Shown here: one piece after another, positions 4,584-57,162 of the stretch
Layout of the letters: every line of letters begins with the position of its first letter
Position numbering within the stretch: the stretch's first letter is position 1
Source: an uncultured Candidatus Saccharibacteria bacterium
Lineage (GTDB): Bacteria; Patescibacteriota; Minisyncoccia; Phycocordibacterales; UBA2100
Direction: 5' to 3'
Assembly (NCBI GenBank): GCA_964545165.1
Contig: CAZJEQ010000001.1
Span: forward strand, 65,971 to 129,970
Length of the DNA stretch: 64,000 nucleotides
Notes under the pieces: generated by a model
Told to the model about the DNA's origin: nothing
Databases searched by the model: none
The model's input: only the letters and a program-made list of their open reading frames with translations
Translations under genes and position numbers: made by a program

Positions 4584-5021
4584 ATGGCAGTCACACATTC
4601 ACCGGTAAACATGGAGGAGCGCAAGACCCTGGATATTCGTCCGGGTGACACCGTGCGTGTCCATCAGAAGATCGAAGAAAAGGGCAAATCGCGCCTCCAG
4701 GCGTTTGAAGGCCTCGTTCTCGCGCGCAAGCATGGTACGGAGGCAGGTGGCACCTTTACGGTCCGCCGTGTCGCCTCGGGTGTCGGTGTCGAAAAGATCT
4801 TCCCGCTCTACTCGCCGATGATCGACCACATCGAAATCGTGAAGCGCGCACGTGTCCGCCGCGCGAAGCTCTACTTCATTCGCGAGAAGGTCTCGCGTGA
4901 AGCGCGCCGTCAGCTCCGCCGCTCCAAGATGATGATCAACGTCTCTGGTGTGACCAAAGTCGTCTCCGTCGAGGAAACTCCGGTAGAGGAGGTCGCAACC
5001 GAGGAAGCGAAGGCAGAGTAA
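4584..5021 (+). CDS. rplS: 50S ribosomal protein L19 (start uncertain: 4584 or 4611)
   Basis: RPGDTVRVHQKIEEKGKSRLQAFEGLVLARKHG...KLYFIREK matches bL19 along its length. Confidence 0.9.
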   Translation: MAVTHSPVNMEERKTLDIRPGDTVRVHQKIEEKGKSRLQAFEGLVLARKHGTEAGGTFTVRRVASGVGVEKIFPLYSPMIDHIEIVKRARVRRAKLYFIREKVSREARRQLRRSKMMINVSGVTKVVSVEETPVEEVATEEAKAE

Positions 5022-13212: not shown

Positions 13213-13256
13213 GAACGGCGCTCGCATCTTTTTTTGATGCGGGCGCCGTTTCTGTT
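13213..13256 (+). terminator. rho-independent terminator after SIMPL gene
   Basis: GAACGGCGCTCGCATC-TTTTTTT-GATGCGGGCGCCGTT hairpin. Confidence 0.6.
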
Positions 13257-13269
13257 AGACTATCGATCT

Positions 13270-13566
13270 ATGGCTATTTCAAAAACACAGAAGTCCAAAG
13301 CAGATACTATCGCAGAGATTTTTTCGCTCGTCTCATCGACGACACGCGTGATGATTCTGACGACGCTTATGAAGAAAAAGGAGTTGCCGGTGCAAGACAT
13401 TGCAGAAGAGCTCGGTATGACGCACTCTGCCGTCTCGCATCAGCTCGGCCTCCTCTCATCGCACGACATCGTGAGCTCCAAAAAAGACGGACGCCTCGTG
13501 TACTACAAGGTTTCGAGCAGCAAAGAGGCAAAAGCGCTCACCAAATTCCTCTCGACACTGGCATAA
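13270..13566 (+). CDS. ArsR/SmtB-family wHTH transcriptional regulator
   Basis: LPVQDIAEELGMTHSAVSHQLGLLSSHDIVSSKKDGRLVYYKV is typical of ArsR HTH and wing. Track ORF trimmed to MAISK. Confidence 0.65.
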   Translation: MAISKTQKSKADTIAEIFSLVSSTTRVMILTTLMKKKELPVQDIAEELGMTHSAVSHQLGLLSSHDIVSSKKDGRLVYYKVSSSKEAKALTKFLSTLA

Positions 13567-20514: not shown

Positions 20515-22083
20515 ATGAAGCAGGAAGATGCACTCACGATACTGAAGACCGGGATGAATGTCTTCCTCACCGGCGAGCCGGGGAGCGGCAAGACGCACAC
20601 CATCAATCGCTACATCCAATGGCTGCGCGAGCGGGGTATCGAGCCTGCAGTCACCGCCTCGACGGGCATTGCGGCGACGCACGTCGGCGGACACACCATC
20701 CATTCGTGGAGCGGTATCGGAGTGAAGAGCAAGATCACGGATTGGGATGTGGAGATGATCGAGCAGCGCGAGAAGACGGCGCGAAGGATTATTGATGCCA
20801 AGGTCCTCATTATCGACGAGGTCTCGATGCTCGACGCCGACACACTCGCGAGCGTCGATAAGGTGCTGCGCATCCTTCGCCGCCGACCCGCGAGCGAGGG
20901 CCAGCCATTTGGCGGACTGCAGATAATTTTTGTCGGCGACTTCTTCCAGCTGCCACCAGTTTCCCGTGGATCACGCGCGGTCTTTGCATTTGAGAGCCCG
21001 GCATGGCGCGAAGCCAACCCGGTGGTGTGCTATCTCTCTGAGCAGCATCGCCAGGAGGACCCGGATTTTCTCGATCTCCTCGGCGCGCTGCGCAGTGGCG
21101 AATTCGGCATCACACATCTCAATCGTCTCAAATCACGCATGGGTATTTCGCCGAAGCAGGAAGTAGCGACGCGACTCTACACGCACAATGCCGATGTGGA
21201 TCGCATCAACGCCGATTCGCTCCGTGCTATCACGGGCGAGGGCAAGCGCTACGTGATGACTTCGCGCGGCGCATCCGCGCTCGTCGAGACGCTCAAGAAA
21301 AATTGCCTCTCACCGGAGACGCTCGATCTCAAGGTCGGCGCGGCCGTGATGTTTACGCGCAACAATTTTGAAGAAGGGTACGTCAATGGCACGCTCGGCG
21401 AAGTCGTCGGATTTGCCGCGAGCGGGTACCCCATCGTGAAGACCAAGGCAGGGAAGCGCATCGAGGCAGTGCCCGGCGAGTGGAGCATCGCCGATGGCCC
21501 GAAGATTCTCGCGCAGGTAAAACAGGTGCCGCTGCGCCTTGCGTGGGCCATCACCGTACACAAATCACAGGGCATGTCGCTCGATAGTGCGATCATCGAT
21601 CTCGGCTCGGCATTTGAATTCGGACAGGGCTATGTGGCGATCTCGCGCGTGCGCTCGCTGCAGGGTCTTTTTCTCGAGAGCTTCAACGAGCGCTCGCTCC
21701 AGCTGCATCCCAAAGTCGTCGGCAAAGATCATCTCTTCCGCCAGGCAGCAGCGGCTGCGCGGCAAAAATTCGCATCGCTCACACGCGAGGAGAAAGCCAA
21801 GCTGGAAGAAAATTTCCTCCGCGCGATTGGTGCACGCGAACCAAGCGTTGTGACCAAGGTGAAAGAGGCTGCGCGATCGAGCATAGAAATACTGCGCGAA
21901 AAATATCCCAACGTCGGCAAGCCCTGGAGCAAGGCCGACGACGACCTCCTCACCGCGATGCACAAGGCGGGGAAGGTGACGGCAGAGATCGCCAAACAAT
22001 TTGGCAGAAAGCCCTCTGCCATCACCGCGCGCCTCGGCCACCTGGGGCTCATCGAGACCTTTTGGAAACCCAAAAAGAAGTGA
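20515..22083 (+). CDS. PIF1/RecD-family ATP-dependent DNA helicase with C-terminal HTH-like tail
   Basis: GEPGSGKT Walker A, IIDEVSM, FVGDFFQLPPV, VHKSQG motifs. TAGAAT box 6 nt before the ATG. Confidence 0.8.
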   Translation: MKQEDALTILKTGMNVFLTGEPGSGKTHTINRYIQWLRERGIEPAVTASTGIAATHVGGHTIHSWSGIGVKSKITDWDVEMIEQREKTARRIIDAKVLIIDEVSMLDADTLASVDKVLRILRRRPASEGQPFGGLQIIFVGDFFQLPPVSRGSRAVFAFESPAWREANPVVCYLSEQHRQEDPDFLDLLGALRSGEFGITHLNRLKSRMGISPKQEVATRLYTHNADVDRINADSLRAITGEGKRYVMTSRGASALVETLKKNCLSPETLDLKVGAAVMFTRNNFEEGYVNGTLGEVVGFAASGYPIVKTKAGKRIEAVPGEWSIADGPKILAQVKQVPLRLAWAITVHKSQGMSLDSAIIDLGSAFEFGQGYVAISRVRSLQGLFLESFNERSLQLHPKVVGKDHLFRQAAAAARQKFASLTREEKAKLEENFLRAIGAREPSVVTKVKEAARSSIEILREKYPNVGKPWSKADDDLLTAMHKAGKVTAEIAKQFGRKPSAITARLGHLGLIETFWKPKKK

Positions 22084-37332: not shown

Positions 37333-38142
37333 ATGAAGTACTTCGACGCCCATACGCACACGAATTTCATCGCGTACAAAGACGATCGCGATGCGGTGAT
37401 GGTGCGTGCTCGCGATGCGGGCGTCGGGATGAATATTGTCGGCACACAGCTCGACACTTCACGCTCGGCCGTGGAGCTGGCACGGAAATATGACCACGCG
37501 TGGGCATCGATCGGCCTGCACCCGGTCCACACTGCACGGTCGTATCACGATACAAAAGAGCTCGGCGAAGGCGGGGAAGAATTTACCTCGCGCGGTGAGG
37601 TCTTCGATTTTGCCGCCTATGAAGCGCTCGGGCAGGATCCCAAAGTGATCGCCATCGGTGAGTGCGGCATGGATTACTACCGTGTCGAAGAGAAGACCAA
37701 AGAAGTGCAGTCTAAAGCGTTTATCGAGCAGATCGAGCTGGCGAATACATTGCATAAGCCGCTCATGCTCCATATCCGCAACGCCTACGACGATGCGATC
37801 GAGATCCTGAAGGCGCATGCCAAGGTGAAAGGCGACGTCCATTTCTTCGCGGGGGATTGGGGAGTTGCGAAACGCTTCCTCGATATGGGTTTCACCTTGT
37901 CTTTCACGGGTGTCGTCACTTTCACAGGTGATTACGACGAGGTGGTCAAGAATGCGCCGCTCGACATGCTACTCTCCGAGACCGACGCGCCCTACATCAC
38001 GCCGACCCCGCACCGCGGCAAACGCAATGAACCCGCCCATATCCCGCTGGTGGTGCAACGCATCGCCGAGATACGCGGCGAGGACGGCGAGGCGGTCGCC
38101 GCACAACTGCTCGCGAATGCACGACGAGTTTTCTCAATCTAA
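37333..38142 (+). CDS. TatD-family metal-dependent hydrolase/DNase
   Basis: YFDAHTHTN N-terminus, with GLHP and GECGMDYY motifs. TATAGT box 6 nt before the ATG. Confidence 0.9.
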   Translation: MKYFDAHTHTNFIAYKDDRDAVMVRARDAGVGMNIVGTQLDTSRSAVELARKYDHAWASIGLHPVHTARSYHDTKELGEGGEEFTSRGEVFDFAAYEALGQDPKVIAIGECGMDYYRVEEKTKEVQSKAFIEQIELANTLHKPLMLHIRNAYDDAIEILKAHAKVKGDVHFFAGDWGVAKRFLDMGFTLSFTGVVTFTGDYDEVVKNAPLDMLLSETDAPYITPTPHRGKRNEPAHIPLVVQRIAEIRGEDGEAVAAQLLANARRVFSI

Positions 38143-43352: not shown

Positions 43353-45563
43353 CTAATATTGGGTTTCATCGCTCTCCTCAGGCGGTGCTTTGGCCAATTC
43401 ATCTGCATTGCCGGCACCAATGATGTCGCGGGGCTTGGCGCCATCTGCGGGGCCAATGACTCCGCGATCCTCCAAGAGATCCATGAGTCGTGCTGCGCGT
43501 GCGTAGCCGACGCCGAGTTTGCGTTGGAGGTAGGAGGTAGAGGCTTTACCGGCCTCAATGACCGTTTTCTTAGCCCCCGGGTAGAGATCATCATCGTCAT
43601 CTCCGCCTTCAGGATTTCCTTCCATAGATGAGAAGACCGCGTCGATGCCACTGCCGACCTTGGCGGCATCGTTGAAGTCGATTTCGCTCGGTGCCTCTGA
43701 GCCGTTGTGCTTGGCGATGAATTCCACGACTTTTTTGACCTCGTCTTCGGAGATATATGGCGCCTGGATACGACGCGGCTTCGACATTTCGCCCGAGAGG
43801 AAGAGCATGTCGCCCGCACCGAGGAGTTTCTCTGCACCACCGGTGTCCAAAATGGTGCGTGAGTCGATCTGCGAGGCGACCTGGAGTGCGAGGCGCGCGG
43901 GAATGTTGGCCTTGATGAGGCCGGTGATGACCTTGACCGACGGGCGCTGTGTGGAGAGGATGAGGTGGATACCGACCGCACGGCTCATTTGCGCAAGACG
44001 CACGATGCCCGCCTCCATTTCGCGGGGATAGGACTGCATGATATCCGCCAATTCGTCGATGATGAGGACGATATACGGCATTGCCTCGGGGAGTGGCTTG
44101 TCCGAATTCTTGCTTGCCTTGGCGAGTGCGGGCGCGAGGATGTTTTCGTGATACGAAGCGATGTCGCGCACCTTTTCTGCCTCGAGAATGTTGTAGCGGC
44201 GATCCATTTCCTTCGCTGCCCACTTCATGGCGAGGATGGCTTTCTTGGGATCGGTGATGACCGGCGTCAGGAGGTGCGGAATCGGGTTATAGAGCGTGAG
44301 CTCGACGCGTTTTGGGTCCACCATGATAAATCGTAGACGCTCTGGTCCGCAGCGGTAGAGGAGCGAGATGATGATGTCGTTAATCGTGACCGATTTACCG
44401 GCGCCGGTCGTACCTGCGACGAGCATGTGTGGCATCTTCGCAATATCCGCAAAGACCGGCGCGCCGTTGATGGCGCGGCCAAGGCCGGCGAGAAGTGGCT
44501 TGTCGGAGCTTGCAAACTGCTCGTCTGAGACGATCGGGCCCATGCCAAGTGTGGTGCGAGCAATGTTCGGCACTTCGATGCCCACCAGTGATTTGCCCGG
44601 AATCGGTGCCTCGATGCGTACCGGCGAAGCAGCGAGCGCGAGCTCGAGATTGCTCTGAAGTGCGACGATCTTCGCGAGACGCACGCCCTCAGCGGGCTTC
44701 ATGGCGTAGCGAGTGACCGTCGGACCAATCGACGCCTCATCCATTTCGACTTGAATGCCGAAATTCTGCAGCGTGCGCTTGATGATGTTCATGTTGGCCT
44801 TCACGTCGCCCACCTCTGGCTTGCCTTTGTTTTTGGCAAGCAGGTTTGCTGGCGGTGGCACATATGCGCTACCCGTCGCGAGAATGACAGGGAAGCCATC
44901 CTGCGGGGGCGCCTCGGTAAAGCTCTTCACCGGCGCGTCCTTTTTCAGTATCGGCTTTTCTTCCGGCTCCATATCATCGTCGTGCGTATCGAGCGGGAGC
45001 CCGACTACCGGCACGTCTTCGAGCGGCTTTTCGATCAGACCCTCCTCGTCGGTCTTCAGTGCAAACATCGCGCGGATCTTTGTGAAGAGTTCCGTGAGCT
45101 TGATATCAAAAGCGATAATGAGCGAGACGACGATAAAAGACAGAAGGAAGATAACGGTAATCGGGGTGTCGACGGCTGCGACGATCGGGTTCGCTATGGC
45201 AGAGCCGAGCACACCGCCGCGGCCAGCTGCAACGAGATTTACCAGTCCCAATCCAGATAGAAGAAAGATCGCCATCGAGACCCCTTGCACCCACCCGAAG
45301 CTCTTTTCGAGCGCGCGGAAAATAAGGACCGACACCATGATCATCGAGAGCGGGAGCAGCATGTAGCCCAGCCCCAAGATCCAGCTGAGTCCCTCGAATG
45401 TCGCCGAGCCAAGTGTGCCGCCGAGCCCGAAGGCAGCCAAGATCAGCGCCAGGGCAACAGCCGAGAGCAGTATCGCAAAGACGCCTCGAAGTGCTTCACC
45501 GCTCACCGTCTGCGCGAGCGACTCCGTCTCAGGCTTTCGTTTCCCATTTTTCTTTGCAGCCAT
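43353..45563 (-). CDS. ftsK: DNA translocase FtsK/SpoIIIE
   Basis: N-terminal TM segments. Motor domain with GTTGAGKS Walker A. C-terminal gamma wHTH (YLQRKLGVGYARAARLMDLLE). Trimmed to MAAKKNG. TATCAT box 7 nt before the ATG. Confidence 0.9.
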   Translation of the reverse strand: MAAKKNGKRKPETESLAQTVSGEALRGVFAILLSAVALALILAAFGLGGTLGSATFEGLSWILGLGYMLLPLSMIMVSVLIFRALEKSFGWVQGVSMAIFLLSGLGLVNLVAAGRGGVLGSAIANPIVAAVDTPITVIFLLSFIVVSLIIAFDIKLTELFTKIRAMFALKTDEEGLIEKPLEDVPVVGLPLDTHDDDMEPEEKPILKKDAPVKSFTEAPPQDGFPVILATGSAYVPPPANLLAKNKGKPEVGDVKANMNIIKRTLQNFGIQVEMDEASIGPTVTRYAMKPAEGVRLAKIVALQSNLELALAASPVRIEAPIPGKSLVGIEVPNIARTTLGMGPIVSDEQFASSDKPLLAGLGRAINGAPVFADIAKMPHMLVAGTTGAGKSVTINDIIISLLYRCGPERLRFIMVDPKRVELTLYNPIPHLLTPVITDPKKAILAMKWAAKEMDRRYNILEAEKVRDIASYHENILAPALAKASKNSDKPLPEAMPYIVLIIDELADIMQSYPREMEAGIVRLAQMSRAVGIHLILSTQRPSVKVITGLIKANIPARLALQVASQIDSRTILDTGGAEKLLGAGDMLFLSGEMSKPRRIQAPYISEDEVKKVVEFIAKHNGSEAPSEIDFNDAAKVGSGIDAVFSSMEGNPEGGDDDDDLYPGAKKTVIEAGKASTSYLQRKLGVGYARAARLMDLLEDRGVIGPADGAKPRDIIGAGNADELAKAPPEESDETQY

Positions 45564-45738
45564 CGTGATAATGATAGCACGCAAGAAAAGGCAAACGGGC
45601 GCTGAGATACGGGCTTTTTCACGGATTCTAAGACGCGTCAAAATATGCACGGTTGTTGTTGCGTCTGAGCCATGTCCTTATATAATAGACATGTAATCAA
45701 CTCGTCTGAGACGCTAAGGGACATTACATAAAATTACA

Positions 45739-51659: not shown

Positions 51660-51689
51660 AAACGCCCCGCACACTGTGCGGGGCGTTTA
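51660..51689 (+). terminator. rho-independent terminator
   Basis: AAACGCCCCGCACACTGTGCGGGGCGTTTA. Confidence 0.7.
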
Positions 51690-51729: not shown

Positions 51730-51828
51730 ATGAAGTACATTAAATCCGCAATTCAGCGCTCCATCCTCCCGATTCTCATCGCTGTCGTCGCCTCCGTGAT
51801 CTTCGTCGTCGCCATGCTCCAGGCCTAG
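51730..51828 (+). CDS. possible 32-aa hydrophobic micro-protein (MKYIKSAIQRSILPILIAVVASVIFVVAMLQA)
   Basis: Short in-frame ATG ORF after a terminator. Overlaps the 3' end of the convergent regulator gene by 4 nt. Weak support. Confidence 0.15.
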   Translation: MKYIKSAIQRSILPILIAVVASVIFVVAMLQA

Positions 51829-52340
51829 CGCCGCCTGAGCTCAAAATGATCGCGCAACGCGCGATCATTTTCCAATTTATCGACCACCATATACAGCACC
51901 TCCTTACCGAGGCGGTAGTCTGTCTTGAGCAGCGCCACCAACTCCTCACAATCGTAGGGGTACACCCATGCCGAATTCTGGAGCTTAAGAAAGCCAATTC
52001 TCCTCAAAGTATCTCTTAGGACTGCGCGGGCAGCTCTTCTTCTCTCTGGTATATCGAAAATGACCATCCGCCATTTGCTATCCCATTTTTGTTGCTCTGC
52101 TGGCTTGAGAGCGTGACGGAGCAAGAAAGCCCGGCCCTCATGTGTAATCTCATATCCGCTTTTGCGCTTGGTGACCAGGCCCTTTTTGATAAGTTTCCCC
52201 AACGCACTTCGGGTCTTCTCGCGCTCGGCACGCACAATGTGCTTTCCAACAAGGCCTGCGAGATTTGGTGCGATTACCACAAGGCTTAGGAGGCCACCGA
52301 CCTGAAGCGTCGTTAAAATAGTCATCCGAATCTTGGTCAT
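51825..52340 (-). CDS. wHTH + Cas2-like domain protein (PaaX-type architecture); candidate transcriptional regulator
   Basis: N-terminal winged helix (RSALGKLIKKGLVTKRKSGYEITHEG). C-terminal WRMVIFDIPERRRAARAVLRDTLRRIGFLKLQNSAWVYP follows the Cas2 core pattern (beta strand, D, R-rich, ..G..QNSVF). Track ORF starts at GTG 52400; first ATG at 52340. Confidence 0.5.
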   Translation of the reverse strand: MTKIRMTILTTLQVGGLLSLVVIAPNLAGLVGKHIVRAEREKTRSALGKLIKKGLVTKRKSGYEITHEGRAFLLRHALKPAEQQKWDSKWRMVIFDIPERRRAARAVLRDTLRRIGFLKLQNSAWVYPYDCEELVALLKTDYRLGKEVLYMVVDKLENDRALRDHFELRRR

Positions 52341-52376
52341 TCTCACTTCTTTCTTCAAATCCGCCTCTAGTCCCAT

Positions 52377-52415
52377 GCAGATATAATTATGCGACCGCAC
52401 ATTTATATCTGCAGC
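52377..52415. repeat. 39-bp near-perfect palindrome, copy 1 (TGCAGATATAATTATGCGACCGCACATTTATATCTGCAG)
   Basis: Reverse complement matches copy 2 at 55817-55855 at 38/39 positions. Lies in the divergent intergenic region between the regulator gene and 52480 gene. Contains TATAAT-like boxes on both strands. Confidence 0.8.
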
Positions 52416-52479: not shown

Positions 52480-53079
52480 ATGTCCACGGCTAAGAAAGTT
52501 TGGAGGGGCGTGCGCTGGCCACTCCTCGCATTGCTGATCGTGTGGGCGGGTTTCGTGCTCGCCGAGGTGCATTGGCCGGTGAACAAGGAGCGATCTGATG
52601 CAGCGGTAGCCGCTATCCAGGCGCAGAGGCTAACCATGGCCGATGTAGATGGTTCGAATCTTCCGCCTGAGCCCGATCCGAAAAAGGTGAATGCCACGAT
52701 CGCTGGCATCGACGCAAACGAGAATGGAATTCGAGACGATGTGGAGCTCGCTATCTTCAAGAAGTACCCGAATAACAAAAAAGTCCGCGCCGCTGCCTTG
52801 CAATATGCGCATGCGCTCCAGTCTCGGTTAACGCAAGTAATCGATGAAAACACCTGGCAAGCTTCTGTCTATATGAAATCGCGTGCCTACAGCTGTGTTT
52901 CTAAAGCGACCGATCTCAGTGCGGGCGCAAAAAGACTGGCTGCAATACAGGAGGTGACGGATTTTATTCAAAATCTAGTTCTTAATACTGCATCTCGAAA
53001 AGACAGAGACGTTAAATTAGAGAAATTCGCGACTTCTGCCGAAACTGCAGCGGGCAACAATTGTGATGTGTACGAATAA
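52480..53079 (+). CDS. hypothetical membrane-anchored/secreted protein, lower GC
   Basis: ORF track 199 aa with N-terminal hydrophobic helix. TAATTT box 5 nt before the ATG. Confidence 0.45.
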   Translation: MSTAKKVWRGVRWPLLALLIVWAGFVLAEVHWPVNKERSDAAVAAIQAQRLTMADVDGSNLPPEPDPKKVNATIAGIDANENGIRDDVELAIFKKYPNNKKVRAAALQYAHALQSRLTQVIDENTWQASVYMKSRAYSCVSKATDLSAGAKRLAAIQEVTDFIQNLVLNTASRKDRDVKLEKFATSAETAAGNNCDVYE

Positions 53080-53088
53080 ATAAACTCT

Positions 53089-55809
53089 ATGAAGCGAGCG
53101 CTCAGTCTCGTGGCTCTGACAACAGTCCTCGGTTTCCCAGCTTTACTCTTTGCGGACAGTTGTTCGACACAAGGCTATTCGGTCTTCATAGTAAATGGAA
53201 TTTTTAATACTCAGGAGAAAGCAGACGAAGGTTCCGATAAGCTTAAAGATTTACTGGGGGACAGTTTGAATAAAGAAGCACTGACGGTACGATCCGCCTA
53301 CAATCCGACCCATATAGCCGGTTTGGGCGATGTTGTGCAGGCAGTGACGCAGGCTTTTAACCAACCAGTTAGTAATTTTGACCGAGACACTATTTTACAT
53401 CGTATTCATTCTCAACTTAAGACGCAAAAAATCTTATTAGTCGGACATTCGCAAGGGACTTTTTACACAAACGAGCTCTATAAATATCTGACGACGCATG
53501 GGGTGCCGAAAGAATCTATCGGCGTCTACAATATCGCGACTCCGGCGAGTTATGTGGAAGGGGGTGGTGGGTATGTGACTTCTACCAATGACAAGATTAT
53601 TAATCTTGTTCGCAATACAGAGGTTGATGGAAATCTCAGTATTCATCTCAATTCATACTACGTGCTCGGCAACACGGTGAATTCTGCGCTGCGTGCGAAC
53701 ATTACAGTGCCCAAAGAGCCGGGCTACGACCAGAGCGATTTTGGTGGGCATAAACTCAGTGTGTATCTCGACGGTGCTGCACCGCGAATCATGAGCGATA
53801 TCGATGCGTCTTTGCGTCGACTCAAGGCGAGCGGGGGCTCAAGTAGTGAGTCGTGTTTTGAACCACCTGTCGAGGACATCTCGTATAAAGCCAAGTCTCT
53901 CTTCTATGCGATGGTGGATCCGCTTGCTGAGGGGACCAAGACGGTCGCGGTCGCAACGCGAAATGGTGCCGAAGGATTTACCGACTACGTCGCTGCAGGT
54001 ATCAATGATACAAAAAGCTTTGCGCAATCAGTCTTCAAGAATCTCGCGTCTGCGAACAACAGCTCGACCAATCAGGCGGCCGCAGCCGTGCTCGCGACTC
54101 CAGTTATCACTACAAAGCCCGTGCCGCAAAACGCACCCAAGCCTCCTCCTGCGCCAGTCACAAAAGTAACTGTTCAGACGCCGAGCCAGGCCGATTCGGT
54201 AAAGCTGCCTGTGCAATCGCCCGATATGGAAAAAGCGCCGGAGGAAAATAATCGAGAGCCAGTAGCGCCCGCTGTCGTTTCGACAGCGGGTTTTGGTGGT
54301 GGACAGCCCAGCTCGCCACAACAACAAGATCCTACGATGGTTGCGCTTTCTATAACTGCGCCTGCCAACAACGCCTTAGTAGCGACATCCTCGGTCGTTC
54401 TTGTCGGGACGGCAGACGTGGGCGCGTTAGTCACCGCGAGTTTCAATTCGTTGAGTGCGACGACAACAGCGGACGGGGCGGGTGAGTGGACTGTGCAACT
54501 CACTCTGCTCGAAGGAACCACCACGGTGACGGTGAGCGCGGTTGATGCAGCAGGGAAGAGTTCAGCAGTGCTGTCTCGCGACATAGTGGTAGATACAATG
54601 GCACCCACAGCGCCGACGCTCGGCATACTCGAATGCGCATCGACCATCGTGACAGGGCTCTGCGTCGTTCCGATTACTGCCGCGACGCTCGATTGGTCGG
54701 ATTCTGGCGCGGACCACTATCGCATTTTTAGAGACGGAGGATATGTCGCAAGTTTCATAGCGACCTCGAGCACTCAAGCAATCTCGACCAACGCAACTTC
54801 GAGTTTCGAGGTAGTTGCGTACGATCTCGCTGGCAATGCTGCGACCTCAAGTGCTGTAAATATCTACGCACTGTCTCAATCTGTCATCATCAACGAAATA
54901 GGATGGGGTGGGACCGACACCGGCAGTGTCTCAGGACAGCAATGGATCGAGCTCAAAAATATGTCTGCATTTATGATCGATCTCTCGCACGTGGTGATCT
55001 CGCGCTCTGGCGGAGCGGAGATAGCGCTCGCTGGCGCAAGCATTCCTGCTCACGGCGGGCTCGTCGTCGAGCAAACAGACATTGCATTCACCGGCACAAA
55101 CAAGCTCGTCACTCCTTTCTCAGATCTCTCCACGGTCGCGGCAGAACAACTTGCGATTACCTGGCGTGGAACGCTACTTGATGCGAGTCCTGCGGTCAGC
55201 ACTTGTTCATCGTGGTGTTCGGGAGGGCTCAATGTATCAATTGGCACCAATGTGAGTGGTGTTGCTGGGTTCACTTCGTCACTCTCGATGGAGAGAGTGA
55301 CGAATGCCGCAGATGGAACGCTCGCTTCTAGCTGGCAGAGTACGGATAGCTACAACGCGGCTTTCTGGGGTACGCCCAATGTTGAGAATAGCAGTGGCTT
55401 GCCGGAGAGTGGGGTCATTTGTAGCGCCGGCGGCTTACTGGTGCCAAGTGCAACAACGCGTCCCTACGATACCGGCAATGTTTCGTGCACCTACCTAATG
55501 AAATTTATCTCGAGCGGCACGACTGGCGCACCTCGCTATGCCGGTCTCTACATGGGCACCGTGGGAAGCTCGACCGTGATCAACGCGCATTTCTTCAGCA
55601 AGTCTATGCAACGCGAGAGTACTGATGTGGTGCCGCCGGGGACTCCTGCTGGCACAGAATTCTTCTTTGTGATCTACGAAGCGCCGACATGGATGGATGC
55701 GGTCACGCCATTCGGAATGTATTTCACCAAGGGCTCCGACCCTGCAAATGGCGGTGCTCCGCCGCCGCACGGCAATTACGTAACCATCCCATTCGTCTAC
55801 CAACCCTGA
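53089..55809 (+). CDS. secreted multidomain protein: alpha/beta-hydrolase (lipase/esterase GHSQG) + Big-like repeats + lamin-tail domain (LTD)
   Basis: Signal peptide. LLVGHSQGT nucleophile elbow. Central T/S/A-rich Ig-like region. VIINEIGWGG...QWIELKN...IDLSHVVI matches the LTD signature. Confidence 0.7.
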   Translation: MKRALSLVALTTVLGFPALLFADSCSTQGYSVFIVNGIFNTQEKADEGSDKLKDLLGDSLNKEALTVRSAYNPTHIAGLGDVVQAVTQAFNQPVSNFDRDTILHRIHSQLKTQKILLVGHSQGTFYTNELYKYLTTHGVPKESIGVYNIATPASYVEGGGGYVTSTNDKIINLVRNTEVDGNLSIHLNSYYVLGNTVNSALRANITVPKEPGYDQSDFGGHKLSVYLDGAAPRIMSDIDASLRRLKASGGSSSESCFEPPVEDISYKAKSLFYAMVDPLAEGTKTVAVATRNGAEGFTDYVAAGINDTKSFAQSVFKNLASANNSSTNQAAAAVLATPVITTKPVPQNAPKPPPAPVTKVTVQTPSQADSVKLPVQSPDMEKAPEENNREPVAPAVVSTAGFGGGQPSSPQQQDPTMVALSITAPANNALVATSSVVLVGTADVGALVTASFNSLSATTTADGAGEWTVQLTLLEGTTTVTVSAVDAAGKSSAVLSRDIVVDTMAPTAPTLGILECASTIVTGLCVVPITAATLDWSDSGADHYRIFRDGGYVASFIATSSTQAISTNATSSFEVVAYDLAGNAATSSAVNIYALSQSVIINEIGWGGTDTGSVSGQQWIELKNMSAFMIDLSHVVISRSGGAEIALAGASIPAHGGLVVEQTDIAFTGTNKLVTPFSDLSTVAAEQLAITWRGTLLDASPAVSTCSSWCSGGLNVSIGTNVSGVAGFTSSLSMERVTNAADGTLASSWQSTDSYNAAFWGTPNVENSSGLPESGVICSAGGLLVPSATTRPYDTGNVSCTYLMKFISSGTTGAPRYAGLYMGTVGSSTVINAHFFSKSMQRESTDVVPPGTPAGTEFFFVIYEAPTWMDAVTPFGMYFTKGSDPANGGAPPPHGNYVTIPFVYQP

Positions 55810-55816
55810 AAAACCC

Positions 55817-55855
55817 TGCAGATATAAATGTGCGATCGCATAATTATATCTGCAG
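55817..55855. repeat. 39-bp near-perfect palindrome, copy 2 (TGCAGATATAAATGTGCGATCGCATAATTATATCTGCAG)
   Basis: Begins 8 nt after the stop of 53089-55809. Inverted-orientation copy of the 52377-52415 element. Inner 10-bp perfect palindrome TGCGATCGCA. Confidence 0.8.
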
Positions 55856-55982
55856 GCTGTCTATAAGACGTGGCGCTCATATTATGAAGATGCTAGTCTG
55901 CGAAGAGGAGAGATGATACACGTGGTCTTTCCGACCGCTCACGCGGGTCTTACACGTGTTCTCAAGGACAAAGGACTAGAAG

Positions 55983-56624
55983 ATGACCAAGCTCAAATCG
56001 GGTGCCGACGGCACTCCGGAGACGGCCAACACGGGTCAACACGGCTGCCTGCCGATCGACGTCGTCACCAAGGGCGACAACAACATCGTGGCGATCGTGG
56101 GCGCCGGTTGCATTCCGATCGACCTCTTCCTGATGGAGGGCGCCGCGACGGGCGTGGCCTACCTGCGCGACGACGTGTTCACCCTGGTCAAGACCAAGGA
56201 GAACTTCGACCTGTCGATCATCCATGCGGCGCCGCGCGACAACGACACGTTGCATGCCGACGACTTCGCCATCTCGCGTGAGATGATCGACGTCGACCCG
56301 TTCAACGGCCCGGCGGATCTCGTCCTCAACAACGTCACCGAGCGCTACGTCGGCCTGTTCGGTGCCTCGCGTCGCAAGCTCGCTCAGCCGGAGGCCTCGC
56401 TCAGCGGTCTCGCGGTGTGCGAAGCGGACGCTTTCGGCGATCGCCAGTGCATCAGCGACTCCGCCACCGGCGGTGACGACGCTGATCAGCTCGGCGACGA
56501 CGGCTCGATGCCCGATCTGTTGCAGGCGTGGCCCGAAGGCGGCGACGGCCGCCCCGTTCCGGCCTACATCGCAGCGGCGGCGCTGGGCGCTCACGCTCCG
56601 ATGGGCTTCGCGGCGACGACCTAG
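55983..56624 (+). CDS. hypothetical protein encoded with extreme GC3 (~90%), atypical for this genome; probable horizontally acquired gene
   Basis: ORF track 213 aa. Almost every codon ends in G/C, in contrast to rplL and recA here. Followed by strong terminator. The antisense ORF 55962-56645 is Arg-rich junk. Confidence 0.4.
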   Translation: MTKLKSGADGTPETANTGQHGCLPIDVVTKGDNNIVAIVGAGCIPIDLFLMEGAATGVAYLRDDVFTLVKTKENFDLSIIHAAPRDNDTLHADDFAISREMIDVDPFNGPADLVLNNVTERYVGLFGASRRKLAQPEASLSGLAVCEADAFGDRQCISDSATGGDDADQLGDDGSMPDLLQAWPEGGDGRPVPAYIAAAALGAHAPMGFAATT

Positions 56625-56685
56625 CGGCCTCTCCTCGGCCCACACTTTCGGAGCGATCGTCTCAACGACGAGAGTTCCACAAGAT

Positions 56686-56722
56686 GCCGGCGGACTTCGC
56701 GTCCGCCGGCGTTTCTTTTTTA
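56686..56722 (+). terminator. rho-independent terminator
   Basis: GCCGGCGGACTTCGCGTCCGCCGGCGTTTCTTTTTTA. Confidence 0.7.
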
Positions 56723-56743
56723 TAAAACCTGTATGAGTCAGGT

Positions 56744-57061
56744 GTGGACTGGATTCATGAAGGTGATACCGTGGAGGTAGGGAAGATACATGGCGCGGTC
56801 TTTCCTCACACCGAGTATTTGGTGCGCAGATGCGCCAACGGAGGTGACATGACTACACAGTCAGGTTGGAGGAACGGTGCCTTGGGCTCGGGAGATGTAT
56901 CGCTCCTGGATTCCATCGGCGCGCGAGCCCTCGACGGCTCGATCTCCCTCTCGGAGCGGGAGCTCGCTGCACAGTATGTGCTGGGCGAAGGTGAGACGGA
57001 GCCCGCGCAACTGCTCGGCATCATCGGCGGGCCGGCTGCCAGCATCATCGACTTCGGCTAG
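56744..57061 (+). CDS. hypothetical small protein (GTG start at 56744, or ATG at 56849 preceded by GGAGGTG)
   Basis: ORF track 105 aa. Bounded by terminators on both sides. Confidence 0.3.
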   Translation: MDWIHEGDTVEVGKIHGAVFPHTEYLVRRCANGGDMTTQSGWRNGALGSGDVSLLDSIGARALDGSISLSERELAAQYVLGEGETEPAQLLGIIGGPAASIIDFG

Positions 57062-57120
57062 CCGCAGCTCAGGGCAAGTCAAAGTCAGATCGACACGTGT
57101 CGATCACAGACCTTCTCCTG

Positions 57121-57156
57121 TTGAGAAGTGCGGCGGACCTCCGGGTCCGTCGCCTT
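57121..57156. terminator. bidirectional terminator between convergent genes
   Basis: CGGCGGACCTCCGGGTCCGTCGCC followed by TTTCTTTTTT. Confidence 0.55.
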
Positions 57157-57162
57157 TCTTTT

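Follow-up and report, generated by a model that had tools for sequence, protein, structure and literature searches.

A short PaaX-like protein with a Cas2-like domain and its matched palindromes in a Candidatus Saccharibacteria contig

What does a Cas2-like domain do when it is fused to a winged helix and encoded where no CRISPR array is seen? The question is raised by a gene on the minus strand (51825..52376, stop codon included) of a 64,000-nt stretch of contig CAZJEQ010000001.1, from an uncultured Candidatus Saccharibacteria bacterium; we refer to this whole stretch as the window. Several databases call close relatives of the 183-aa product 'CRISPR-associated endonuclease Cas2'. The original prediction, made from the letters alone, proposed instead a reduced PaaX-type protein lying beside its operator palindrome. 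Having compared the protein, its relatives and the palindromes that accompany them, we consider that the gene probably encodes a dimeric, autoregulating short PaaX-like repressor that also controls a neighbouring surface-protein cassette.

Gene, domains and family

The open reading frame (ORF) ends in a stop codon at 51825-51827 and contains the peptide WRMVIFDIPERRRAARAVLRDTLRRIGFLKLQNSAWVYPYDCEEL quoted in the original prediction. There the start had been put at the ATG at 52340, giving 171 aa, but this codon is an internal Met, 12 residues (36 nt) after the true start. We place the start at the ATG at 52376 because all homologues open with a conserved MGxLE motif (the window protein begins MGLEADLKK) and because an identical database protein, P0001, has 183 aa. 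A hidden Markov model (HMM) of the family matches a single ORF in the window, that of the regulator.

The C-terminal half (residues ~96-178; 51843..52091, minus strand) is a Cas2-like domain of ferredoxin fold, with a WDxKW motif and an invariant Asp108 that ends strand beta-1. Pfam PF20803 PaaX_M ('PaaX protein central Cas2-like domain') gives ~79 bits on residues 96-168 of the window protein (cut-off 24, E ~3e-22) and also matches 34 of 34 relatives. The CRISPR_Cas2 family PF09827 scores 16.6-16.8 bits on the same stretch (cut-off 23.8, E 0.009) and reaches E ≤ 0.01 in 26 of 34 family members. The window protein obtains 23.8 bits with the TIGR01573 cas2 model (cut-off 24.5), E 1e-5 with the PADLOC Cas2 model, and 36.1 bits with the PaaX equivalog TIGR02277, whose cut-off is 264.55. 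In the AlphaFold2 (AF2) model this half adopts a beta-alpha-beta-beta-alpha-beta(-alpha) fold with predicted local distance difference test (pLDDT) values of 85-96 for residues 100-178. Foldseek ranks E. coli PaaX (8a39) first (E 2.2e-4, 135 columns) and 3kfw second, followed by ~30 Cas2 structures, among them 3exc, 6jhz, 5zyf and 2ivy, with TM scores on the target of 0.5-0.65. The Cas2-like domain recognized in the original prediction is thus found again by PaaX_M and by the many Cas2 structures on which the predicted fold can be superposed.

The N-terminal half (residues ~14-88; 52113..52337, minus strand) is supported as a PaaX-type winged helix-turn-helix (wHTH), at low model confidence (pLDDT 40-76), by AF2, by weak Pfam matches and by hhalign and HMM alignments. 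It would consist of H1, a short strand, H2, H3, a two-strand wing and a linker helix. The AF2 elements (helices at 15-27, 32-42 and 49-64, strands at 68-71 and 74-77, and a helix at 79-88) follow the topology H-b-H-H-b-b. Pfam contributes weak matches to HTH_45 and S19e, and PF07848, the N-terminal family of PaaX, is matched by one of 34 members (E 0.0086). Alignments to PaaX and to Rv0674 of Mycobacterium tuberculosis (3kfw) span the end of H2, H3 and the wing. We read this half as a wHTH because its helices line up with those of PaaX (TILTTLQVGGL vs SLISSLYGDSL) and because basic residues flank them.

The relationship to PaaX extends over both halves. With hhalign, the family and E. coli K-12 PaaX align with a probability of 93.9% (E 1.5e-7) over 119 columns, residues 41-161 on PaaX 45-167. 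A search of the Protein Data Bank (PDB) with the family profile returned Rv0674 (3KFW) as best match (E 1.2e-4) and E. coli PaaX (8A39) at E 3.5e-3; Cas2 chains followed at E 0.3-0.9. No Pfam match to the PaaX_C effector domain was obtained, and we judge this domain missing because the protein terminates ~15 residues past the Cas2-like domain. The profile matches expected at the outset were PaaX_C/Cas2-like and wHTH; of these PaaX_M and weak wHTH matches appeared and PaaX_C did not, so that the reduced PaaX-type architecture stands, with the reduction falling on the effector domain.

When 1.84 billion cluster representatives (50% identity) were searched exhaustively with the family profile, 628 clusters matched at E ≤ 1e-30 and 3465 at E ≤ 1e-10. 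A word-indexed search gave 182 relatives of 170-230 aa, which their sources name "Cas2", "PaaX" or hypothetical. At least 587 loci in GTDB species genomes match; among the matches listed, 80 of 80 are from the ultra-small Patescibacteria, with Kaiser-, Adler-, Zambryski-, Taylor- and Ryanbacteria and Paceibacterota among their lineages. The family was absent from the 2.9 million viral contigs searched. Several genomes carry two or three divergent paralogues, with within-genome identity of only ~40% and different palindromes. No conserved operon partner was found, the commonest neighbour cluster being present at 15 of 81 loci. Across 106 sequences T78, G81, W98, D99, R103, D108, R117, Q133, S135, W137, P140 and E144 are invariant. 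D108 corresponds to the beta-1 Asp of Cas2, which is lost in PaaX and Rv0674. No His is invariant among the 106 sequences, and no HUH motif was found.

The database names would imply a bona fide Cas2, serving a CRISPR-Cas system at another place in the genome as its adaptation subunit. The invariant beta-1 Asp, the near-cut-off TIGR01573 score and the PF09827 matches in 26 of 34 members fit such a role. However, PaaX_M matches far more strongly (79 vs 17 bits), and the predicted wHTH, the WDxKW motif and the length of 183 aa are features of PaaX. The genomic context also argues against it. No repeat-spacer array was found in the window by Tandem Repeats Finder, a direct-repeat search or a k-mer array scan, and PADLOC identified no core cas gene among the 63 window ORFs, its sole Cas2 match being the regulator; the original prediction had come to the same view of the window. 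CRISPR-like arrays were seen at none of 160 homologue loci (1.9 Mb), and Rfam reports only tRNAs in the window. Since there is also no conserved neighbour, and several genomes hold two or three divergent paralogues, we regard a role in CRISPR adaptation as extremely improbable.

The same Asp might instead belong to a single-chain, toxin-like RNase of the Cas2/VapD type, with the wHTH merely autoregulating its synthesis. The Cas2 family is akin to the VapD toxins by sequence and fold, Asp108 is invariant, and the architecture suggests tight autoregulation. Against this, there is no antitoxin partner or conserved neighbour, the closest characterised relatives are repressors rather than toxins, and the Asp lies in a D-x-P-E helix cap where it may be structural. 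A toxin is therefore highly unlikely in our judgement.

Matched palindromes at the window gene and across the family

Immediately upstream of the gene lies a palindrome (copy 1, 52376..52413; TGCAGATATAATTATGCG AC CGCACATTTATATCTGCA) of 38 bp. Its two 18-nt arms are 89% complementary and enclose a 2-nt centre. The final base coincides with the A of the regulator ATG, and the dyad centre is ~17-18 nt from that ATG, as in most homologues. A perfect TATAAT faces a divergent cassette (towards 52480) and a TATAAA faces the regulator. From these sequence features copy 1 is the predicted operator and promoter region common to the regulator gene and the cassette.

Only one other match exists in the 64 kb. 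Copy 2 (55815..55856; CCTGCAGATATAAATGTGCGATCGCATAATTATATCTGCAGG) is an inverted duplicate of copy 1 at a distance of 3.4 kb, its TATAAT points back into the cassette, and four arm matches are found where 0.04 are expected. As single-stranded DNA, copy 1 has a hairpin z of -4.0 and copy 2 of -7.4. The two copies bracket a divergent surface-protein cassette of two genes. The first (52480..53079, plus strand) starts 67 nt from copy 1 and encodes 199 aa with an N-terminal hydrophobic segment, for which neither Pfam nor PADLOC gives a match. The second (53089..55809, plus strand) encodes a 906-aa secreted or surface protein with weak matches to Big_13, Glucodextran_B and LTD, and copy 2 begins 6 nt past its stop. 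The cassette was initially called foreign-looking; a more apt description is a variable cassette lying between two copies of the predicted operator. To the right of copy 2 (55860-57160) there are only overlapping ORFs without family matches (55983-56624, plus strand; 55962-56645, minus strand), and this stretch may be a decayed or very divergent gene. The neighbours of the regulator are surface proteins, a tetratricopeptide repeat (TPR) protein and FtsK, and no paa genes are nearby.

Palindromes of this kind recur throughout the family. Of 83 family genes, 62 are preceded by a dyad in which 14 or more of 19 positions are symmetric; for the other genes of these loci the count is 114 of 1345. 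The dyad centre is exactly 17 nt before the ATG at 33 of 76 genome loci and 30 of 61 metagenome loci. The sequence itself is locus-specific and varies between loci and between paralogues. Each palindrome is typically accompanied by a second, matched copy, a median of 18 nt past the stop codon. The similarity between upstream and downstream copies exceeds the 99th percentile of mismatched-locus controls at 64 of 83 genome loci and at 51 of 75 independent metagenome loci, and the second copy is identical to the first at 26 or more of 38 positions at 68 of 76 loci.

The pattern of identity between copies delimits the element. The two copies agree best at central positions 1-4 (identity 0.91-0.97) and positions 15-17 (0.88-0.99), less well at positions 5-10 (0.65-0.78), and no more than background beyond position 19; we therefore define a 38-bp element with a central zone and two outer zones ~32 bp apart. 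Family-wide, G is present at +3 in 99% of half-sites, which gives a C-N4-G core (CTATAG, CGACCG, CGATCG). Many sites have an asymmetric central dinucleotide (AC/GT) that is flipped between the copies. This comparative evidence strongly supports the palindrome as the probable operator originally proposed, although its length is 38 bp and not 39 bp.

The gene-facing arm contains a perfect TATAAT at 24 of 68 loci in the upstream copy and at 10 of 68 in the downstream copy. We infer that the -10 box lies inside the operator and that transcription would start near the dyad centre, an assignment made solely from the position statistics of TATAAT. Classes of H3 follow the sequence of the outer arms: QKEYxSSSASK is found with ATACG and QEEIVRSSASK with CTACA. 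This correlation is consistent with H3 reading the outer arms.

We also considered the downstream copy as the promoter of a conserved target and rejected this. At about half of the loci no ORF in the same direction lies within 150 nt; the remaining loci have unrelated housekeeping genes there, such as purD, dnaE, rnhB and gatB. Roughly half of the downstream copies cannot be promoters of this kind because they face a convergent gene.

The matched copies bracket the family gene at most loci, and this arrangement is reminiscent of a selfish or mobile unit such as RAYT/REP or IS200, in which the Cas2-like domain would be a nuclease acting on the palindromes. Variable contexts, the lack of a conserved partner, the invariant Asp at the Cas2 catalytic position and the multiple copies in several genomes are in keeping with mobility. 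The pattern of relatedness is not. Units 80-100% identical to one another have at least one flank (the cca-like gene) in common in every case, and we found no similar unit in an unrelated context; the window is syntenic with its closest genomic relative, and paralogues are ~40% identical and have their own palindromes. Furthermore, a given palindrome is present in only two or three copies per 20-64 kb, the family has no member in the 2.9 million viral contigs and no HUH motif, and the -10 box and ATG built into the upstream copy are the architecture of a promoter and operator. We consider a mobile unit very unlikely.

A few loci depart from the common arrangement. At the window and at L001, the closest genomic relative of the window gene (69% identity, syntenic), no palindrome copy follows the regulator stop, and a small ORF is found there. 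The cassette of L001 lies between two copies of its own and consists of genes for 895 and 142 aa that are non-homologous to the window cassette. At L017 the order is palindrome, a 1031-aa secreted protein and a 226-aa membrane protein, palindrome, regulator, palindrome. At L016 and L022 a TrmB-like gene is preceded by a third copy, and L081 (57% identity) has an ordinary upstream and downstream pair. In the window and at L001, L017, L016 and L022, the extra copies are at the edges of neighbouring transcription units.

These cassettes suggest another explanation, namely that the palindromes are sites of site-specific recombination or exchange and that the protein promotes inversion or replacement of the cassette, leading to surface variation. 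The window copies are inverted duplicates around the cassette, whose content is wholly different in the syntenic window and L001; in related genomes the sequence beyond the upstream copy often shows no homology, in contrast to the conserved flank on the other side, and the asymmetric central dinucleotide flips between copies. Yet we identified no recombinase-like catalytic domain or motif, and what the palindromes enclose is, at most loci, the regulator gene rather than cargo. No inverted or alternative arrangement was seen; an exact-pattern scan of metagenome contigs for the window palindrome had 0 matches and is therefore silent on inversion. Variable surface-protein genes are common in such genomes without a known exchange mechanism. 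On balance, recombination at the palindromes appears very unlikely.

Some further observations concern the surroundings of the palindromes. A subfamily (L016, L022, L096, L098, L106, L108, L111, L114 and L157) adjoins a convergent cca-like gene. On that side the sequence is conserved. Beyond the upstream palindrome, related genomes often share no homology, and a TrmB-like regulator gene is frequently found there. At L021 the family gene and its palindromes lie between the two copies of an 82-nt direct repeat, ~68 nt before and 87 nt after the gene; such a repeat was not seen at other loci. Perfect palindromes of 40-46 bp with the same core types (GCTATAGC, CGCGGTCGCG) were encountered far from any detected family gene at L030 (8155-8194, 9651-9696, 13868-13909), L006 (18980-19021), L048 (1383-1424) and L070 (13603-13648). 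Paralogues at other places in those genomes may use them as operators.

A proposed repressor mechanism

We favour a model of repressor and operator mainly because the geometry of the palindrome equals that of the PaaX operator. Two subunits would be joined through the Cas2-like central domain, the dimerisation module of PaaX, so that each N-terminal winged helix could read one outer arm of the 38-bp palindrome, with the C-N4-G core on the dyad. A dimer bound to copy 1 would occlude the divergent promoters and turn off both the regulator gene and the cassette 67 nt away. Binding to copy 1 would silence the regulator's own gene because this copy holds the predicted -10 boxes and ends at the ATG. 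The second matched copy would mark the far end of the bracketed unit, which is the cassette in the window and the regulator gene in most relatives, and is most likely an auxiliary operator, used for looping or as a roadblock. Since the PaaX_C effector domain is absent, the protein cannot respond to phenylacetyl-CoA in the manner of PaaX.

Several observations weigh against this model. At the level of the DNA, a consensus sigma-70 scan of both window palindromes called no promoter and found no -35 match, and the 17-nt leader that the model implies lacks an obvious Shine-Dalgarno sequence. The correlation between H3 classes and outer arms is confounded by phylogeny, and simple autorepression does not explain the downstream or far copy. 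At the level of the protein, pLDDT in the N-terminal half is 40-76 in both AF2 models (40-60 in the first 50 residues), and a second AF2 run with 106 sequences gave no better confidence there. H1 and H2 also reach the hydrophobicity of a transmembrane helix: 103 of 106 members have a best 19-aa Kyte-Doolittle mean above 1.6 (median 2.0), compared with a maximum of 0.99 at the N-terminus of PaaX. In the window protein the hydrophobic segment comprises residues 15-45 (~52242-52334) and is strongly basic on both sides. We do not adopt a membrane anchor, but keep it as a caveat; the segment is collinear with H1 and H2 of PaaX and has basic flanks, and the DNA evidence also implies a cytoplasmic, DNA-binding role. 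Finally, the invariance of D108 may indicate that the Cas2-like domain is more than a dimerisation module. Its position in a D-I-P-E helix-capping motif suggests that this conservation could be structural.

Were the domain more than a dimerisation module, it might have kept the ability to act on DNA: a Cas2-derived domain that synapses both copies and nicks or exchanges DNA at the C-N4-G core, leading to replacement or inversion of the cassette. The matched palindromes would then be its substrates and not passive operators. We think this very unlikely. If true, it would amount to a Cas2-based, CRISPR-independent system for manipulating DNA in bacteria otherwise without CRISPR.

A few smaller features of the window are recorded here. 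Within the last 50 nt of the regulator coding sequence is an inverted repeat with perfect 13-nt arms and a 3-nt spacer (51843..51871; hairpin z -5.8), formed by codons for NDRALRDHF. Its core (GATCGCGC-N3-GCGCGATC) is present in L001 and not in L081; the repeat may have a function, or it may arise by chance from the codons used for DRALRD. A small ORF (51730..51828, plus strand) for a hydrophobic product of 32 aa (MKYIKSAIQRSILPILIAVVASVIFVVAMLQA) runs convergently to the regulator and overlaps its stop by 4 nt, at the position that the downstream palindrome occupies in other family members. Its conservation in L001 (MKHIIAAVQRSVLPVAIAVVASTLFVIAMLQA) makes it probable that this ORF encodes a real small membrane protein. 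At 51660-51688, 3' of the TPR gene, is a GC-rich, perfect 14-nt hairpin (AAACGCCCCGCACA/TGTGCGGGGCGTTT) with an equivalent in L001 at 4728-4761; it resembles an intrinsic terminator that would serve convergent units from both sides.

Elsewhere in the window, a stand-alone winged-helix protein of 110 aa (13234-13563, plus strand) is matched by the PADLOC Csa3/CasR/CARF3 models in their DNA-binding part only (E 7.8e-14). It lacks a CARF domain and was ruled out as a cas gene (Csa3). Other matches in the defence library are homologues with housekeeping roles: FtsK (43353-45650, minus strand; SspH/HerA/mad8 models), a RecD-like helicase (20515-22083, plus strand) and a TatD-like hydrolase (37333-38142, plus strand; QatD model). 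With this library, no defence system was evident in the window.

The central idea of the original prediction is correct, but neither it nor the proposed exaptation of a Cas2 fold for regulation is new, since the architecture is already described in Pfam PF20803 and in PaaX structures. In the literature on PaaX and Cas2, and on Patescibacteria and palindromic operators, we found no description of the family. Three features seem not to have been described before: the existence of a short form without an effector domain as a large family in Patescibacteria, where it is regularly misannotated as Cas2; the Cas2 motifs that this form has kept; and the bracketing by matched palindromes. Hundreds of Patescibacteria genomes label the gene 'Cas2', and surveys of orphan cas2 genes in these CRISPR-poor lineages will count false positives. 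For organisms with reduced genomes, whose regulation is almost unknown, a large uncharacterised family of regulators gains a predicted operator with exact positions. The family also stands between Cas2 and PaaX in sequence, combining the (F/Y)DI and QxSVW motifs of Cas2 with the predicted wHTH and the WDxKW motif of PaaX, and so is informative on how transcription factors came to contain the Cas2 fold. Two matched operators around one transcription unit, if this is what the palindromes are, represent an unusual arrangement with no worked-out function.

Relation to known systems

The closest well-characterised system is PaaX, the phenylacetyl-CoA-responsive repressor of the paa operon (E. coli 8A39, Jannaschia 3L09, TIGR02277). 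In PaaX a wHTH and a dimerisation motif are joined to a C-terminal inducer-binding domain, and the protein represses its own Px promoter by excluding RNA polymerase (PMC9493321). The window protein has the same PaaX_M domain, preceded by a predicted winged helix, and shares the WDGKW motif. The operator geometry also agrees. In E. coli the operator is TGATTC-N27-GAATCA, 39 bp in length (PMC9493321); in both cases inverted outer hexamers are ~27 bp apart in an element of 38-39 bp, as judged here from sequence alone. The two differ in several respects. PaaX has 316 aa and carries the helical inducer domain PaaX_C, whereas the window protein has 183 aa (170-200 aa in its relatives) and lacks it. 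PaaX has lost the beta-1 Asp, and its H1 and H2 are far less hydrophobic than those of the window family. Only the family gene is usually bracketed by two matched predicted operators, and no paa genes are found near the window gene.

Rv0674 of M. tuberculosis (3KFW), an uncharacterised PaaX-like protein, aligns over H3, the wing and the Cas2-like domain. It is longer (247 aa) owing to an extra C-terminal region, and has IVTSIG where the family has IFDIPE. Cas2 itself (PF09827, TIGR01573) has in common with the family the ferredoxin-like fold, an (F/Y)DI motif ending beta-1, an Arg-rich helix and a Q-x-S-V-(W/F) strand. However, it is half the size and has no fused wHTH, and the window protein remains below the curated cut-offs and has no cas1 or array nearby.

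RAYT/REP provides an analogy only. There, too, a single gene is bracketed by cognate palindromes, and each paralogue has its own element. RAYT proteins, in contrast, carry an HUH/Tyr transposase motif and their palindromes are dispersed in hundreds of copies, whereas the window has two in 64 kb. The upstream copy of the family described here is, moreover, integrated into the predicted promoter and the start codon of its gene.

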